A stretch of 29,113 bases of DNA from Oscillospiraceae bacterium (lineage in GTDB: Bacteria > Bacillota > Clostridia > Oscillospirales > Ruminococcaceae), in NCBI GenBank assembly GCA_017440425.1, contig JAFSHJ010000072.1, positions 1 through 29,113 on the forward strand. The letters are read 5' to 3'. Positions 15,192 to 20,260 of the stretch are shown here, one piece after another (within the stretch, counting starts at the first letter, position 1; each line of letters starts with the position of its first letter). The notes under the pieces are model-generated. The model was not told the origin of the DNA and searched no databases. It saw only the letters and a program-made list of their open reading frames with translations. The translations under genes and the position numbers were made by a program.

Positions 15192-15216
15192 AAGAGACCG
15201 CCGAAAGCGGTCTCTT
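15192..15216 (-). terminator. Intrinsic terminator after the HTH gene
   Basis: Perfect 10-bp stem AAGAGACCGC-loop-GCGGTCTCTT followed by TGTT on the minus strand. Confidence 0.7.
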
Positions 15217-15238: not shown

Positions 15239-15664
15239 TCAGCACAAGGTCTCTTCGTTTTCCGCAAAGAGCTTGTCGTTTGTCTCAAACAGGTTAAGAC
15301 CGTGGACAAGACCGTAAATTATTATTGCATCGCGCTTGAACTTGGGATAGAGCAATGCCAATCCGCACAGCTTCAAAAGATCCTGCGCCTCCTCAAGCGA
15401 TACCTGAAGTCCGAAACAAAGGCACAGCAAACGGTTGCGGGAGGGACATCTTCTTCCCGCAAAAATCTGGTAAAGATATATTTCACTCATTCCCGACTGC
15501 TTTGCCAGCATTGCCTTTGAAATATCTCTTTTGTTAAAAAGCTCGTTCAGCACATCGGGGATGCTCTCATTCACAAACACGTCCTGGTTTTCAGCAAGAA
15601 ATCCATCCAAATTAGGAGAATCCATCAGCGCCTGTTGCAAGTCGTCGGTGTTTTTCCTTTTCAA
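15239..15664 (-). CDS. XRE-like helix-turn-helix protein
   Basis: ISKAMLAKQSGMSEIYLYQIFAGRRCPSRNRLLCLCFGL resembles a Cro/C1 HTH. TTG start after AAAGGGG; divergent from the kinase gene. Confidence 0.8.
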   Translation of the reverse strand: MKRKNTDDLQQALMDSPNLDGFLAENQDVFVNESIPDVLNELFNKRDISKAMLAKQSGMSEIYLYQIFAGRRCPSRNRLLCLCFGLQVSLEEAQDLLKLCGLALLYPKFKRDAIIIYGLVHGLNLFETNDKLFAENEETLC

Positions 15665-15675
15665 AATACTACCCC

Positions 15676-15729
15676 TTTACAAAAAAAGAACAATCTTCTA
15701 TAATTATATCACTATATAATATTTTACAA
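15676..15729. promoter_or_regulatory. Overlapping divergent promoters (kinase operon on +, HTH gene on -)
   Basis: Plus strand: TTTACA (15676-81)-17-TATAAT (15699-704). Minus strand: TG-extended TATAAT at 15708-15703. The two -10 hexamers overlap by 2 bp. Confidence 0.55.
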
Positions 15730-15770
15730 TTTTAAAATGATAAAAACAATATGCTGGGAGCATAGGAAAA

Positions 15771-16483
15771 GTGGAAAAAATAACTATTTATGATAATTTT
15801 TTAGAATCTCTCGGTCGTGAGTTCGATATTTTGAAGGAACTCAAGGCGGGATTGCGCGGCAGCGTATCCGTTGTGAGGCACAAACAAAGCGGCAGCAAAT
15901 ATATTTTCCGCCACTTTGCGGGAAACGGAGACGTCTACAAAAAGCTGCTCATCGTTGCATCCCCTCACCTGCCGCAGATAATGGAGGCCGCCGAGCAGGA
16001 CGGCAAGGTTATTGTGCTGGAAGAATTTGTACAGGGAGACACTTTGGATTTTATTCTTGAAGGCGGTCTTCTCACACCTGCCCAGGCAAAAAAATTATCC
16101 TTAAGCTTTGCTCCGCACTCCATATCCTCCACTCCTTCGGGGCTGTGCACCGCGATATCAAGCCCGAAAACATCATCATCTGCGGCGGCAATGCCGTGCT
16201 GATAGACTTTGATGCCTCCCGCATATTCAAAGAAGAGAGCGAGACCGACACGCAGATTTTGGGCACCACCGGCTTTGCCGCTCCCGAGCAATACGGCTTC
16301 TCCCAATCCGACCCAAAAGCCGACATCTATTCTCTCGGCATTTTGCTGAACGTTATGCTCACCGGCAAGCACCCCTCCAAAGAGCTTGCAAAAGGCAGAA
16401 TGGGACGCATTGTTCAGCGCTGCACCATGACCAACCCCAAAAAGCGTTTTAAAAGCGTGCTCCACCTGATGGAGATGCTTTGA
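15771..16483 (+). CDS. Stand-alone Hanks-type Ser/Thr protein kinase split by a -1 frameshift at an A7 tract (error, pseudogene or recoding)
   Basis: N-lobe in ORF 15771-16202 (HLPQI...VLEEFVQGDTL); C-lobe in the -1 frame (KLCSALHILHSFGAVHRDIKPEN, LIDFD, LGTTGFAAPEQ, DIYSLG). Adding one A at 16088-16094 gives a continuous 237-aa kinase. Confidence 0.88.
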
Positions 16484-17775
16484 CCCCAACAACAGGACGT
16501 GATAATTTGATCAACACCGATAACCGCTGCAATATGTGCGGAAAAGCGCTGCCCGAGGGCGCGGCCTTCTGTCCCCACTGTGCAGGCAGCCAAATTAAAA
16601 AAAGCTCTGCCCGTACGGCAAAGCCCTGGCGAAAGAAGCTGCTGATTTGTTTTGCGGTTGTTTTTGTTCTGGCTTTGGCGGCCTTTGGGCTTTATAAAAA
16701 ATTCGGTCCCCAAACCTATGAGGGCGGCGCATCCGTCCTCTATACCGACGAAAACGGTGAACAATACAATGTATACTTAAAATTTTTCGGTGAGGGACAA
16801 TACGACAAATTCACCCCCGATGAAGACTACTTCTTCCAGATGACCTGCGAAGAGATATCTTCCGCACCCTCCCGTATTTACGTTGCCTACAACGACAGCT
16901 TTGACGTCCGTGAAAAGTTCCGCGCTCAGGTGAAGGATATCACGGTGGAATCCGTTCCGACAGATGGCGGCGAGGCGCTGGTCTGCGAGATCGTTGAGGA
17001 GACCGCACTTGCATCCAATGCGCTGATATCTGCCGAGTATCTTTACACATACAAAAACAAGACCAACGATATCCGCTGGACTGTCACCATGAACAACGGC
17101 GACAAAATAATCCTCACCCACACCGTGACCATGGAAGAGGTGCCGCTGGTGCACATCTATCCCGAAGACTACCCCATGAACACCATTAAAGAGCTTCGTG
17201 CGCTTTTCGACAAGCTGGAAACGGAATATCCGCCCAACACCTCCATCGCCATCCATCTGCCTGCAGTCACATATGACGGAGGCTTCATCTACGACACAAG
17301 GGCCTACAACCTTTTCGGAAGCAGAGATGGAGATGCCGTCACCACCTTCACGGGAAACGTGACTGTCTCCAACCGCAACCCCACACTTGCTTTTTTCGAC
17401 GGCATCTGTTTTAAAGGAGACGGCGCAGAAAGCATCGGTCTCACAATGACCACGGCAGCGGTGATAGACAACTGCATTTTTGAAGACCACGCCATCGGTC
17501 TAAACGTGACAGACGGCGGCTGGGCAATTGTTGAGGGCTGCGAATTTTTGCAAAACGGCATCGGCATTAATTTAAACAACCCCGGCATTTCAAGCGCTTC
17601 CTCCAACTCCTTTGCCTATTGCAGCTTTGAGAAAAACGGCACCGCAATCTCCTTTAAACAACTGCCCTTTACCGACAACTTTATTTTTACCGAAACAAAA
17701 TTCATCGGCAACGATACCGATATCATCAATTACACCGATTGCACCCTGGATCTCTCCGGCGCCACCTTTAAATGA
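16480..17775 (+). CDS. Zinc-ribbon / single TM / extracellular domain with C-terminal right-handed beta-helix-like repeats (paralog 1)
   Basis: CNMCG...FCPHC, basic patch, hydrophobic helix LLICFAVVFVLALAAFGLY, C-terminal repeats (IDNCIFEDHAIGLNV, VEGCEFLQNGIGINL, AYCSFEKNGTAI). True start may be TTG 16507 after AGGA. Confidence 0.75.
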   Translation: MTPTTGRDNLINTDNRCNMCGKALPEGAAFCPHCAGSQIKKSSARTAKPWRKKLLICFAVVFVLALAAFGLYKKFGPQTYEGGASVLYTDENGEQYNVYLKFFGEGQYDKFTPDEDYFFQMTCEEISSAPSRIYVAYNDSFDVREKFRAQVKDITVESVPTDGGEALVCEIVEETALASNALISAEYLYTYKNKTNDIRWTVTMNNGDKIILTHTVTMEEVPLVHIYPEDYPMNTIKELRALFDKLETEYPPNTSIAIHLPAVTYDGGFIYDTRAYNLFGSRDGDAVTTFTGNVTVSNRNPTLAFFDGICFKGDGAESIGLTMTTAAVIDNCIFEDHAIGLNVTDGGWAIVEGCEFLQNGIGINLNNPGISSASSNSFAYCSFEKNGTAISFKQLPFTDNFIFTETKFIGNDTDIINYTDCTLDLSGATFK

Positions 17776-17803
17776 CGACCAAAACACGAAAGGACGGAAT
17801 TTG

Positions 17804-19045
17804 ATGAGCAAAAAATGCATTTCCTGCGGCACTCAAATTGACGATTCCTCCTCTTTCTGCCTGCATTGCGGCACATCGCAAATTCAGAAAAATGCCGCCA
17901 CGCTGCCCAAAATTTGGCGGCGCAAAACCCTTATTGCAATTTCTGCAGCGGTTTTGGTGCTGCTTTCGGTGCTTTTGGCATCGTTTATCCACATCCCCAA
18001 AACCTATTCCGACGAGGGCAACCTCTCCTACAGCTTAAAGAACAAAGAATACATTCTTGTCTTACGCCCCGACAAGGCGGACGACGAGGCTGTTCCTTCC
18101 CCCATAAAGCAGCTCAATTATTCCGTTGCCAAAAACGGCTCCACCCAAACCATCACCCTCAATCTGTTTGTCTACCGCAACGGTCAGCTGCTCTCCCCCG
18201 ATGAGTTTCTCTCCAAGGTGAAAAACATCTCTTTTGAGGCTATCCCCGTGGACGGCGGACAGACCGTAAAGCTCTTTGATGCCGAAAACCACCTTCAGGC
18301 ATCTCCCCTTGCATTGATAAGCTGCCGTGTAAAATTCAGCGCCGAAAGCCAGACCAACAAGCTGCTCTTTACAGTAAAAATGAAAAACGGCGACACTTTG
18401 GAGATATCCCAGCGTTTGGTGGCGCGCCCCATGGCCGTTCTCAACTACTATCCCGATTCAACCCCGCTTGCAACGGTGGGTGACATTGAAAAGCTTTTGG
18501 AATCCCTTGAGCAATACAACTCTGGGGACACCTCCATCAACCTGCATCTGCCTCCCGTAACCTATAACAGACCTCTCACCCTTCCATTTGGCAACATTCA
18601 TTTGTACGGCAGCTCCGACGGCGAAAACACCACCACCTTCACCAAAACCTTAACATTTTCCGAAAACATACGCCACAAGGTCACCGTCAACGATATCACC
18701 TTTGCCAACAGCGAAGGGGCAGGCATCCATGCGCTGGCATATGGCAATGCACGCGGATGCACCTTCACCGGATGCAGCATCGGCATCTCCTTTTGCGACC
18801 GCGGCTGGGTTGCGTTTGAAAACTGCACCTTTGCAAACAACGATATCGGTGTGCTTTTCAATTCCGAAAACGCCACGCAATATTCCGTAAATTTTCAGGG
18901 TAACCAATTCATCGGCAATTTGGTTGGTGTTGAGCTCCGTGCTATCCCCTTCACCTCTCCGCTTAATTTCACCGGCAGCGTTTTCCGGCACAACCGCACC
19001 AATGTGGAAAACCTCACCGGCAACCCCGTCAACATACCCGATTGA
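17804..19045 (+). CDS. Zinc-ribbon / single TM / extracellular beta-helix-like protein (paralog 2)
   Basis: MSKKCISCG...FCLHCG, TM LIAISAAVLVLLSVLLASFI, repeats RGCTFTGCSIGI and ENCTFANNDIGV. Start at TTG 17801 or ATG 17804 after AAAGGA; the track's 17612 start overlaps paralog 1. Confidence 0.75.
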   Translation: MSKKCISCGTQIDDSSSFCLHCGTSQIQKNAATLPKIWRRKTLIAISAAVLVLLSVLLASFIHIPKTYSDEGNLSYSLKNKEYILVLRPDKADDEAVPSPIKQLNYSVAKNGSTQTITLNLFVYRNGQLLSPDEFLSKVKNISFEAIPVDGGQTVKLFDAENHLQASPLALISCRVKFSAESQTNKLLFTVKMKNGDTLEISQRLVARPMAVLNYYPDSTPLATVGDIEKLLESLEQYNSGDTSINLHLPPVTYNRPLTLPFGNIHLYGSSDGENTTTFTKTLTFSENIRHKVTVNDITFANSEGAGIHALAYGNARGCTFTGCSIGISFCDRGWVAFENCTFANNDIGVLFNSENATQYSVNFQGNQFIGNLVGVELRAIPFTSPLNFTGSVFRHNRTNVENLTGNPVNIPD

Positions 19046-19176: not shown

Positions 19177-19773
19177 ATGAAAATCTGTCCCAACTGCAAT
19201 ACCAAACTCAATGATGAGAACATGTTCTGCACAAACTGCGGCGCAAACTGCAAAGAGGTTGAAATTCTCTCCGATGTAACAGAAAACGTATCCGTTGTTG
19301 AGGAAGCTCCCGTTGTTGAGGAAGCTCCCGTTGTTGAAGAGGCTCCCGTTGTTGAAGAGGCTCCCGTTGTTGAAGAAGCTCCCGTTGTTGAAGAAGCTCC
19401 CGTTGTTGAAGCTCCCGTTGTTGAAGCTCCCGTTGTTGAAGCTCCCGCTGCTGAAGCTCCCGCTGAAGATCCCGGCAAGACCCTCGGTCTCGTAGCTATG
19501 ATCCTCGGTATCGCATCCCTTGTTCTCTGCGTGGCTTGCTCCTGCTTCGGTCTCGGACTTTTCTCCGGCATCCCCGCAATCGCAGGCGTTATCTGCGGAT
19601 TCCTCGCCAACAAGAAATCCAAAGAAGTTGGCATCAAGAACAAAAAGGCATCCATCGGTCTCATTCTCTCCATCGTTGCCATTGTTCTCACCGTCGTATT
19701 CTATGTTGGACTTCTCCTTCTCGGCGGCGCAGCAGCTCTGTTCTCCGGTCTTGACAGCGGCTACTATTATTGA
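19177..19773 (+). CDS. Zinc-ribbon protein with acidic VVEEAP repeat linker and two C-terminal TM helices (DUF4190-like)
   Basis: MKICPNC...FCTNCG, repeat linker, [16 protein letters not shown]...GVICGFLA...[14 protein letters not shown]. Confidence 0.75.
19294..19473 (+). repeat. Coding tandem repeat: 6 x 18 bp (VVEEAP), 3 x 15 bp (VVEAP), then degenerate AAEAP and AEDP
   Basis: GTTGTTGAGGAAGCTCCC x2, GTTGTTGAAGAGGCTCCC x2, GTTGTTGAAGAAGCTCCC x2, GTTGTTGAAGCTCCC x3. Confidence 0.97.
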
Positions 19774-19792: not shown

Positions 19793-19838
19793 AGCACCCG
19801 AAAACGCCAAGACTTTTGGATGTTTTCGGGTGCTTTTT
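19793..19838 (+). terminator. Intrinsic terminator between the repeat gene and the DUF2752 gene
   Basis: 13-bp stem AGCACCCGAAAAC / GTTTTCGGGTGCT followed by TTTT. Confidence 0.75.
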
Positions 19839-19849
19839 ACAACACGATC

Positions 19850-20260
19850 ATGTTTGCTTTTTTTAAAAAATTTTCACCAAAAACCGTTTTGGTGGTGTGT
19901 GACCTACTGCTCATTCCCGCACTTATAGCCTGCGAGCGGTTGAGCGACCGTATGCTCGCAAAAAATGCCACCTGCCCCTGGAATTTTTTTGGCGGAAAAT
20001 GCATCACCTGCGGCGGCACACACTTTGTCAACTCTGTTTTGAATTTTAAATTTGCAGAAGCTTTCGGGCACAATCAATATCTTTTTGTGCTTGCTGTGTT
20101 TTTTGCGCTCTCTTTTCTGCTTTTGAATCTGCACAAGCTTTTCGGCATACAGTTCGCCAAAAGGGTGCTGCGGAAGATGTATAACATCCCCATGCTTATT
20201 GCGGGCTGCGTTTTGATGGTGCTTTTTGTCATTCTCCGCAACCTGCCGCTGTTTTTCTAA
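19850..20260 (+). CDS. DUF2752-like membrane protein
   Basis: TCPWNFFGGKCITCGGTHFVNSVLNFKFAEAFGHN resembles the DUF2752 CP...CPGCG.TR...A...N motif, flanked by TM helices. Start moved to ATG 19850 because 19820 lies inside the terminator stem. Confidence 0.65.
   Translation: MFAFFKKFSPKTVLVVCDLLLIPALIACERLSDRMLAKNATCPWNFFGGKCITCGGTHFVNSVLNFKFAEAFGHNQYLFVLAVFFALSFLLLNLHKLFGIQFAKRVLRKMYNIPMLIAGCVLMVLFVILRNLPLFF

Follow-up and report, generated by a model that had tools for sequence, protein, structure and literature searches.

A probable receptor Ser/Thr kinase encoded in pieces: a regulator, soluble kinase and zinc-ribbon sensor cassette from an Oscillospiraceae genome

The usual picture of bacterial Hanks-type kinases is that of a handful of receptor kinases per genome, each a single chain with pleiotropic action. 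A 29,113-nucleotide stretch of DNA from a gut bacterium of the Oscillospiraceae (Clostridia; GenBank assembly GCA_017440425.1, contig JAFSHJ010000072.1; hereafter the window), which is one entire contig of an 80% complete metagenome-assembled genome (MAG), raises the question of whether such a receptor may also be distributed over several genes. In the window, a gene for a small Ser/Thr kinase is followed by genes for two paralogous single-pass membrane proteins, here termed ZnR1 and ZnR2, each with an N-terminal C4 zinc ribbon (ZnR), and is preceded by a divergent gene for a helix-turn-helix (HTH) regulator. A preliminary description of the window had proposed this four-gene layout, and all four genes were indeed found at 15239-19045 with the HTH gene divergent; Pfam and NCBIfam scans likewise bore out its statement that the kinase possesses no transmembrane (TM) segment, no PASTA repeats and no other domain. 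Close relatives of the kinase also carry the label Oscillospiraceae. On balance, we favor the reading that the cassette is a three-part transmembrane signalling system, a receptor Ser/Thr kinase encoded in pieces; the support for this reading is good and comparative in kind.

The gene arrangement is far from chance, because the same four genes recur in a congeneric genome (G002) and a three-gene core, comprising the divergent HTH gene, the kinase gene and one ZnR sensor gene, recurs in genomic and metagenomic loci with unrelated flanks. Sensor genes number one, two or three per cassette, with three in tandem at one locus (L100), and several thousand relatives of the kinase were detected in metagenomes. 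The cassette has a chromosomal location close to infC in two species of the genus. Sequence identity between the window species and G002 is 79% for the kinase, 76% for the HTH regulator, 67% for ZnR1 and 46% for ZnR2; across the family, the kinases share 68-79% identity and the sensors 29-40%. This pattern of rates fits that expected of a conserved cytoplasmic core joined to diversifying surface receptors. At three other loci (L009:1-6246, L011:3203-4198 and L013:478-1872), cassette copies adjoin TrbL, DNA methylase, resolvase, integrase or IS1595 genes, which suggests occasional carriage of the cassette on mobile elements.

The strongest argument for the zinc ribbon bringing the kinase to the sensor is furnished by two naturally fused proteins, P0297 (653 aa) and P0299 (648 aa). 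In both, an N-terminal kinase is followed by a short linker, one TM helix and the same β-sandwich/β-helix ectodomain that is present in ZnR1 and ZnR2; the kinase portion is 53-54% identical to the G002 kinase and possesses Arg at the β3 position. There is no zinc ribbon in either protein. Both fusion genes adjoin a divergent gene for a 140-aa HTH protein, and one of the loci (L097) has a further, separate ZnR paralog after the fusion gene. Because the fused kinase sits exactly in the place of the zinc ribbon, the role of the ribbon would be to bring the kinase to the sensor. The fusions do not look like an assembly artefact, as the two differ from one another in sequence and in linker.

To what extent are the soluble kinase and the ZnR membrane proteins associated beyond the window species? 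The census was taken with an HTH-family profile on 300 genomes sampled across the order, kinase patterns being too generic for this use. The profile returned about 45 near-full-length matches, with the HTH family carried by about 11% of the sampled genomes. We examined 40 full-length HTH loci from 32 genomes; a family kinase was encoded within 2.4 kb in 34 of these, and one more locus possessed a PASTA kinase only. The 34 loci are of two kinds: i) in 16, the kinase is soluble (~232-276 aa) and one to three ZnR-TM genes lie beside it in every case (16/16), and ii) in 18, the kinase is long, mostly with TM helices of its own and often with LRR_4 leucine-rich repeats (LRRs), and a separate ZnR-TM gene is nearby in only two. 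A sensor-subtype profile built from the 44 cytoplasmic residues of the module sensors assigned 29-63 bits to the ZnR proteins that partner soluble kinases, irrespective of ectodomain type, as compared to at most 27 bits to those near long or TM-bearing kinases and at most 26 bits to the other zinc ribbons of the window genome. The partner ectodomain is a β-helix in loci of the window type; among ten partners in the alternative HTH-ZnR-kinase gene order, it is of the BspA-type LRR_5 family in six and of no recognised family in four. As the window genome possesses about five ZnR-TM candidates among roughly 2000 open reading frames, chance adjacency of such genes to the kinase is unlikely. Neighborhood analysis, which the preliminary description had put forward as a check, thus finds that HTH and kinase genes do co-occur with one to three ZnR-TM genes in the soluble-kinase loci of the sample, and its proposal that sensor and kinase are encoded apart and work together gains support from the fusions, from the kinase-linked zinc-ribbon subtype and from the variable number of sensor copies. 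The HTH profile also returned ~80 matches confined to positions ~29-139, mostly inside frames of ~330-370 aa, which constitute a second, more widely distributed family in the order; its proteins of ~340 aa include a related HTH and C-terminal extension and are devoid of the N-terminal Thr tail described below.

A maximum-likelihood tree built from 75 kinase domains unites the soluble kinases with the two fusions in one clade (44 rows, support 96/71). This clade is nested among TM-bearing HTH-linked kinases, and it comprises two branches, one of the window type and one with the HTH-ZnR-kinase order. The tree was midpoint-rooted, with the PASTA kinase and a group of zinc-ribbon kinases on the other side. 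As judged from this tree, the split state arose essentially once; it then persisted across two gene orders and no fewer than two ectodomain types, with changes in copy number and one or two re-fusions along the way. Seven loci (L119, L123, L128, L130, L132, L134 and L135) encode, next to the same HTH, single-chain proteins of 545-782 aa with an N-terminal kinase, a TM helix and LRR_4 repeats, in effect bacterial ‘LRR receptor kinases’. Among cultured strains, Otoolea muris DSM 111138 and Roseburia zhanii BX1005 carry the fused form. In a genus of the window genome's family (L136:3910-8655 and L137:10-6499), the HTH gene is flanked by three paralogous genes in which an N-terminal C4 zinc ribbon is fused to the kinase, with one copy additionally possessing a TM helix and a long C-terminal part; these zinc-ribbon kinases group apart in the tree as a long-branch clade.

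Both membrane proteins possess the features that the preliminary description had read from them: four invariant Cys residues, one TM helix each, and a β-helical end that is apparent, for ZnR1, in an AlphaFold2 model. The model of ZnR1, generated from a 106-row alignment with a predicted local distance difference test (pLDDT) score of 94.6, comprises a zinc knuckle, a basic stretch, a TM helix (residues 41-66), a β-sandwich (70-217), a helix (227-240) and a right-handed β-helix (246-420). The four Cys residues, organized in two CxxC knuckles, are invariant in the 106 sequences. Against Pfam Zn_Ribbon_1 (PF13240, cutoff 25), ZnR2 scored 27.1 bits and ZnR1 24.1 bits, slightly below the cutoff; the two paralogs align along their whole length with 28% identity (E 4e-46). 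Structural comparison with VIA-align, which placed the β-helix and barely covered the β-sandwich, aligned ZnR1 residues 214-422 with phage tailspikes, capsule depolymerases and pectate/alginate lyases at Z scores from 19.5 to 14, the top match being a phage tailspike β-helix (Z 19.5). A whole-chain Foldseek search of the PDB returned weak multi-domain matches to enzymes of glycoside hydrolase families GH49, GH28 and GH87 and to Siglec-like sandwiches. Among Pfam β-helix families, ZnR2 matched NosD and Adeno_E1B weakly, and relatives of the ZnR proteins matched Beta_helix and NosD.

The most conserved motif of the ectodomain, W-x5-N-G-D, is located in the β-sandwich. Near-invariant residues of the β-helix are Gly, Cys, Phe and Asn only; the sensor alignment holds no conserved Asp, Glu, Lys or Arg in the β-helix, no active-site superposition having been made. 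Tentatively, we take the ectodomain for a binding domain and not an enzyme. A profile search assembled the ectodomain family into 276 clusters at E <= 1e-30. When ZnR1 was used as the single query, the ectodomain was recovered in only one of 40 close relatives, because this domain diverges fast. One metagenomic relative of the sensors (P0230, 675 aa) possesses an extra extracellular insert of ~270 residues between the TM helix and the shared ectodomain.

The regulator matches Pfam HTH_3 (PF01381) over residues 41-91 (27.7 bits, cutoff 23), with C.AhdI as a distant match. The HTH domain is preceded by an N-terminal tail of ~35 aa with a conserved Thr (K-N-T-D-D-L) and followed by a C-terminal extension of ~50 aa. 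This Thr, positioned 5-6 residues from the N-terminus, is present in 57 of 61 HTH members and is the sole conserved Ser/Thr column. Two of the four Thr-less members are found in a PASTA-kinase-only locus, one in a kinase-less locus and one in a decayed locus. Since the Thr is kept in 57 of 61 members and the exceptions occur only where there is no adjacent family kinase, it is the obvious candidate phospho-acceptor. The decayed cassette (L114:4935-5896, G305:C55) has an in-frame TAA in the HTH gene, a ZnR gene cut to 161 aa and no kinase gene, in addition to the loss of Thr; an intact second cassette copy (L105) is present in the same genome.

Each of the nine related loci that were scanned has a palindrome, AACAATATGC-N5-GCATAG, at 20-40 nt ahead of the kinase start; its arms do not vary between loci, and its spacer does. 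The core ATATGC-N5-GCATA matched in 14 loci among the 1.27 Mb of locus DNA retrieved, beside the module in all 14. Perfect matches to the complete 21-nt motif number three in the 2.04-Mb genome, as against none for a reversed control. Outside the window, one copy (G000:C23:13676-13696) lies between an operon for an OmpR-type response regulator and the gene for a 320-aa zinc-ribbon protein, and another (G000:C219:2333-2353) lies upstream of the reading frame for a small membrane protein; the genes at these two sites may be regulon members. The gene just upstream of the C219 copy is, by our inspection, presumably YebC-like, and on the same contig we observed a gene (L141:3-965) that we take by eye to encode FtsZ with a C-terminal C4 zinc-ribbon motif (CPKC...CIKC). 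All three genomic copies lie 56-100 nt upstream of a gene read on the opposite strand. This placement fits a DNA operator better than an RNA element, if not decisively. The preliminary description had supposed the HTH protein to be the output or the substrate of the kinase; linkage in 34 of 40 loci, retention of the Thr in 57 of 61 members and the conserved palindrome fit this supposition.

In the window, the reading frame of the kinase is broken at a run of seven A residues (A7). A contig from another sample (L095) is 98.8% identical over 3268 bp, and the sole gap in the alignment is A8 versus A7; it encodes an intact 237-aa kinase. Logan contigs from four runs in four studies all have one A inserted at the same site, a near-identical intact form of the kinase is available as P0002, and the G002 kinase is intact at 234 aa. 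With A8 in L095 and the four Logan runs and an intact kinase in G002, the A7 run is private to this MAG and reflects either a true mutation or an assembly error. As every other source has A8, we rejected programmed frameshifting and phase variation as a feature of the population. Decay of the kinase in most relatives, which the preliminary description had named as an observation that would speak against a functional module, was not found; the kinase is intact in relatives, where it carries matches to PF00069 and PF07714, and in conspecific strains. Metatranscriptome contigs from run X14 cover the operon and were set aside as evidence, since they provide no transcription level and may derive from DNA.

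Is the intact protein an active kinase? Its C-terminal half matches Pfam Pkinase (PF00069) at 67.9 bits (cutoff 31.7), and the PASTA-kinase model NF033483 matches the kinase core only (100.4 bits, cutoff 450), with no TM segment and no PASTA repeats. The best sequence matches among solved structures are the kinase domains of StkP and PknB. A HipBA-like toxin-antitoxin pair was rejected, as the protein is a bona fide Pkinase, not of the HipA family, and possesses sensor partners. The motifs HRDIKPEN, DFD and APE are present; the His, Asp and Asn of the catalytic loop, the Asp of DFG, and the Pro and Glu of APE are invariant in 37 sequences, and close relatives conserve HRDxKPxN, the DFG Asp, APE and an activation-loop D-T...G-T motif. 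The β3 position holds Arg (I-F-R-H-F) and not the Lys of VAIK, and the Gly-rich loop has one Gly left; the β3 Arg and D-F-D are invariant in 21 close relatives. The AlphaFold2 model of the kinase derives from a shallow 21-row alignment (pLDDT 54), and only its secondary structure was used; in this low-confidence model, the β3 Arg is within a strand (39-46) and an E/D residue starts the predicted αC helix. In the sister clade with the HTH-ZnR-kinase gene order, the β3 residue is nearly always Arg, with His in two members, Lys in one and Leu in L016, and the DFG position reads DFN or DLN. TM-bearing relatives mostly possess Lys at β3 and DFG.

This atypical active site, which the preliminary description did not record, leaves a pseudokinase reading open, and this is the main alternative to the reading that we favor. 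The kinase-like protein would then be a scaffold, a nucleotide- or ligand-gated adaptor held at the membrane by the ZnR proteins that, much like an anti-sigma factor, sequesters or releases the HTH regulator, with no phosphotransfer. In favor of such a scaffold, the soluble clade has mostly exchanged the β3 Lys for Arg, and some of its members have His or Leu there; the degenerate Gly-rich loop and the DFD, DFN or DLN motifs point the same way. A possible family affiliation bears on both sides of the issue. The DYD family of Firmicutes and Actinobacteria comprises membrane-associated proteins that combine a β3 Arg with a second Asp at DFG, loss of the αC Glu being a further trait, and of which ~60% are classed as pseudokinases; the same authors predict ATP binding via an Arg-Asp salt bridge (PMC12599244). 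Compared by the published motif definition only, the window kinase may belong to this family: like DYD kinases, it possesses the β3 Arg, a second Asp in the DFG position and a retained HRD motif; unlike them, its motif is D-F-D with Phe in place of Tyr (D-F/L-N in the sister clade), and it lacks a TM segment of its own, such that its link to the membrane would be in trans. The near-invariance of the HRD Asp, the catalytic-loop Lys and Asn, the DFG Asp and APE would be odd for a pure scaffold, and the HTH Thr is absent only in loci without an adjacent family kinase, as a phospho-acceptor would show. We consider the pseudokinase scaffold unlikely, while regarding it as the alternative to be taken most seriously.

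Taken together, a model for the split receptor kinase emerges. ZnR1 and ZnR2 would reside in the membrane with the zinc ribbon inside and the β-sandwich and short β-helix outside; judging from its fold, the ectodomain may bind a glycan or another extended surface ligand. As the fusions and the distribution of the sensor subtype suggest, the ~44-residue cytoplasmic zinc ribbon and basic juxtamembrane segment would recruit or activate the soluble kinase, thereby standing in for the covalent TM link of the related kinases. The kinase would act upon the 141-aa XRE regulator, most likely by phosphorylating the Thr of its N-terminal tail, and the regulator would in turn bind the palindrome ahead of the kinase operon and the two further genomic sites to alter transcription. 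Paralogous sensors could let a single kinase/regulator pair read several signals.

Several observations weigh against this model. The evidence for contact between the zinc ribbon and the kinase is indirect; a predicted complex of the kinase with ZnR1 residues 1-44 and zinc received a score of 0.00 with a partner pLDDT of 46-50, which is neither support nor counter-evidence. Each of the two fusions is known from one short Logan contig. The association between soluble kinases and ZnR partners amounts in essence to one ancient event, such that a Fisher p of 5e-6 overstates independence because the split is confined to a single clade; the argument rests instead on the long retention of the split state and on the fusions. 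Loss of the β3 Lys, of the Gly-rich loop and of the DFG Gly in the soluble clade implies that phosphotransfer may be weak or absent, and there is no phosphatase gene within the cassette. The ectodomain appears to lack conserved acidic catalytic residues. Lastly, the palindrome lies at ~+35 to +55 from the predicted transcription start, which is unusual for an operator, and it could be an element of the 5′ untranslated region.

A second alternative retains the sensors and alters the wiring. Here, the zinc ribbon would bind the HTH regulator and not the kinase; the sensors would tether the regulator, and the kinase would modify either partner for release. The topology is that of zinc-binding anti-sigma factors and of the RsgI-type sensors of Clostridia, and in one gene order the ZnR gene is positioned directly between the HTH and kinase genes, often overlapping the HTH stop codon. 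The fusions point the other way, as replacement of the ribbon by a kinase exactly at the cytoplasmic end of the TM helix is what would be expected if the ribbon holds the kinase, and relatives with a TM-fused kinase keep the HTH regulator and need no zinc ribbon; we therefore deem this wiring improbable. A very improbable third reading, in which the cassette is mobile-element or phage-defence cargo with a Stk2- or PD-T4-6-like kinase and tailspike-like surface proteins that serve as phage decoys or detectors, draws upon PADLOC matches of the PD-T4-6 and MAD6 models to the kinase (best E 9e-33), the mobile-element genes near some loci and a fast-evolving ectodomain most similar in structure to phage tailspike and depolymerase β-helices, and is countered by the restriction of those matches to the generic core (residues ~58-200 of 290-660-aa models, much as for PknB-type models), the absence of PADLOC matches to the sensors and a marginal one to the HTH protein (E 0.0023), the chromosomal location near infC in two species, the dedicated regulator and conserved palindrome beside a cassette with no effector domain, and relatives that are ordinary TM-LRR receptor kinases.

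The features of the locus are collected in Table 1. The -35 and -10 columns of the kinase promoter are conserved in an alignment of eight related intergenic regions. The kinase stop codon (16481-16483) overlaps a TTG codon at 16480 that is an alternative start for ZnR1; the TTG at 16507 is the more likely start, as it yields the 422-aa form P0121 and takes in the first Cys pair. Downstream of the cassette, 19177-19773 encodes a third, unrelated zinc-ribbon protein, in which tandem P-V-V-E-E-A repeats are combined with a DUF4190 membrane domain; it is followed by 19820-20260, which encodes a DUF2752 membrane protein with a CxxC motif. Membership of the former gene in the cassette was rejected, as it possesses a promoter of its own with a 12/12 consensus match, its zinc ribbon is generic (19 bits on the module profile), and it is absent at the G002 locus.

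Table 1 Positions of the cassette genes and associated sequence elements in the window.
Feature	Position	Strand	Remarks
Terminator-like hairpin, 3′ of the HTH gene	15192..15216	-	11-bp stem with 6 GC pairs; T-rich tail after
XRE/HTH_3 regulator, 141 aa, divergent	15239..15664	-	Pfam HTH_3 match
Sigma-70-like promoter of the kinase operon, TTTACA-17-TATAAT	15676..15704	+	consensus match 11/12
Candidate operator, palindrome AACAATATGC-N5-GCATAG	15745..15765	+	end 6 nt 5′ of the kinase start
Hanks-type kinase, kinase domain only, 237 aa if A8	15771..16483	+	Pkinase match
Kinase frames in this assembly	15771-16202 and 16145-16483	+	split by missing A
A7 homopolymer, 1-base deletion site breaking the kinase frame	16089..16095	+	A8 in other sources
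ZnR1, 422 aa: C4 zinc ribbon, basic juxtamembrane stretch, TM helix, β-sandwich, right-handed β-helix	16507..17775	+	
ZnR2, 413 aa, ZnR1 paralog, identical architecture	17804..19045	+	ribosome binding site AAAGGACGGA upstream; start checked

Should the split receptor kinase hold, the cassette suggests a dedicated sensor-kinase-regulator pathway with a logic comparable to that of a two-component system. It would furnish a first functional context for the abundant, unstudied N-terminal zinc-ribbon membrane proteins of Clostridia, as well as a biological setting and a candidate substrate for a kinase lineage in which Arg stands in for the catalytic Lys. The model predicts sharply which peptide docks the kinase, which Thr accepts the phosphate and which sequence serves as operator. 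Glycans from the diet, the host or microbes are possible ligands, in which case the cassette would be informative on environmental sensing by anaerobes of the gut. More tentatively, and with rather less confidence than we attach to the cassette itself, the HTH-linked kinases could constitute a widespread and dedicated ‘two-component-like’ class in gut Firmicutes and Coriobacteriia, in which a Hanks kinase is wired one-to-one to an XRE regulator with a Thr-tail receiver, and in one large clade of which the receptor was split, with a portable zinc-ribbon/TM adaptor, interchangeable ectodomains (β-helix, LRR) and a β3-Arg kinase.

How does the cassette relate to systems that are already described? 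No published module of HTH regulator, kinase and zinc-ribbon sensor was found in the literature searched, coverage of which was incomplete, such that absence is not proven. The words ‘zinc’ and ‘helix-turn-helix’ do not occur in the text of the DYD study (PMC12599244) or in that of the bSTK atlas (bioRxiv 10.1101/2025.01.12.632604), and ‘LRR’ and ‘operon’ are likewise absent from the text of the latter. In its logic, the cassette resembles a PASTA-type receptor kinase coupled with a cognate regulator, with the receptor encoded as separate and exchangeable ZnR-TM proteins; it belongs neither to the PASTA kinases nor to the RsgI or defence-kinase families. With the PASTA kinases PknB, PrkC, StkP and Stk1, it shares an intracellular Hanks domain, one TM pass and an extracellular sensor, and the substrates of those kinases include transcription factors. 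Unlike them, the kinase and sensor here are products of separate genes, there are no PASTA repeats, the β3 residue is Arg, a dedicated adjacent regulator takes the place of pleiotropic targets, and no cognate PP2C phosphatase is encoded in the operon. Firmicute Hanks kinases without PASTA sensors also include B. subtilis YbdM/PrkD and C. difficile CD2148, which the window kinase resembles in this respect. CD2148 is monocistronic, TM-anchored, devoid of the catalytic Asp and Asn and a suspected pseudokinase (PMC9674922); its assignment to the same family was rejected, as it is monocistronic and lacks the two catalytic residues, both of which are kept in the present family, where HTH and ZnR partners accompany the kinase.

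One-to-one pairing of a kinase with a neighboring regulator, paralogous single-pass sensors and a receptor separate from its kinase each find a counterpart elsewhere. PknH of M. tuberculosis is a membrane Ser/Thr kinase paired one-to-one with its neighboring transcription factor substrate, EmbR. In Xanthomonas, the membrane Ser/Thr kinase PknS phosphorylates EcfK, its neighboring cognate transcription factor (PMC13147305). Unlike in these two pairs, the regulator here is a small XRE HTH protein with a Thr tail, and not an extracytoplasmic function (ECF) sigma factor or an FHA/SARP protein, and the kinase is soluble and would reach the membrane only via a separate protein. In the RsgI-SigI systems of cellulolytic Clostridia, paralogous single-pass polysaccharide sensors feed into a dedicated transcription factor. 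The cassette resembles these systems in possessing several single-pass paralogs, a small N-terminal cytoplasmic module and a variable, carbohydrate-related ectodomain, and differs from them in that the cytoplasmic module is a C4 zinc ribbon and a kinase is placed between sensor and regulator; Pfam and NCBIfam scans returned no RsgI_N match among the cassette proteins, and there is no sigma factor gene at the locus. Plant LRR receptor-like proteins signal via the separate kinases SOBIR1 and BAK1. While the lineage is unrelated, the topology is opposite, with the cytoplasmic part N-terminal here, and the kinase is soluble in the bacterial cassette, the likeness is in the use of a separate kinase by a receptor that has none of its own, and LRR ectodomains are present in the sister clade.

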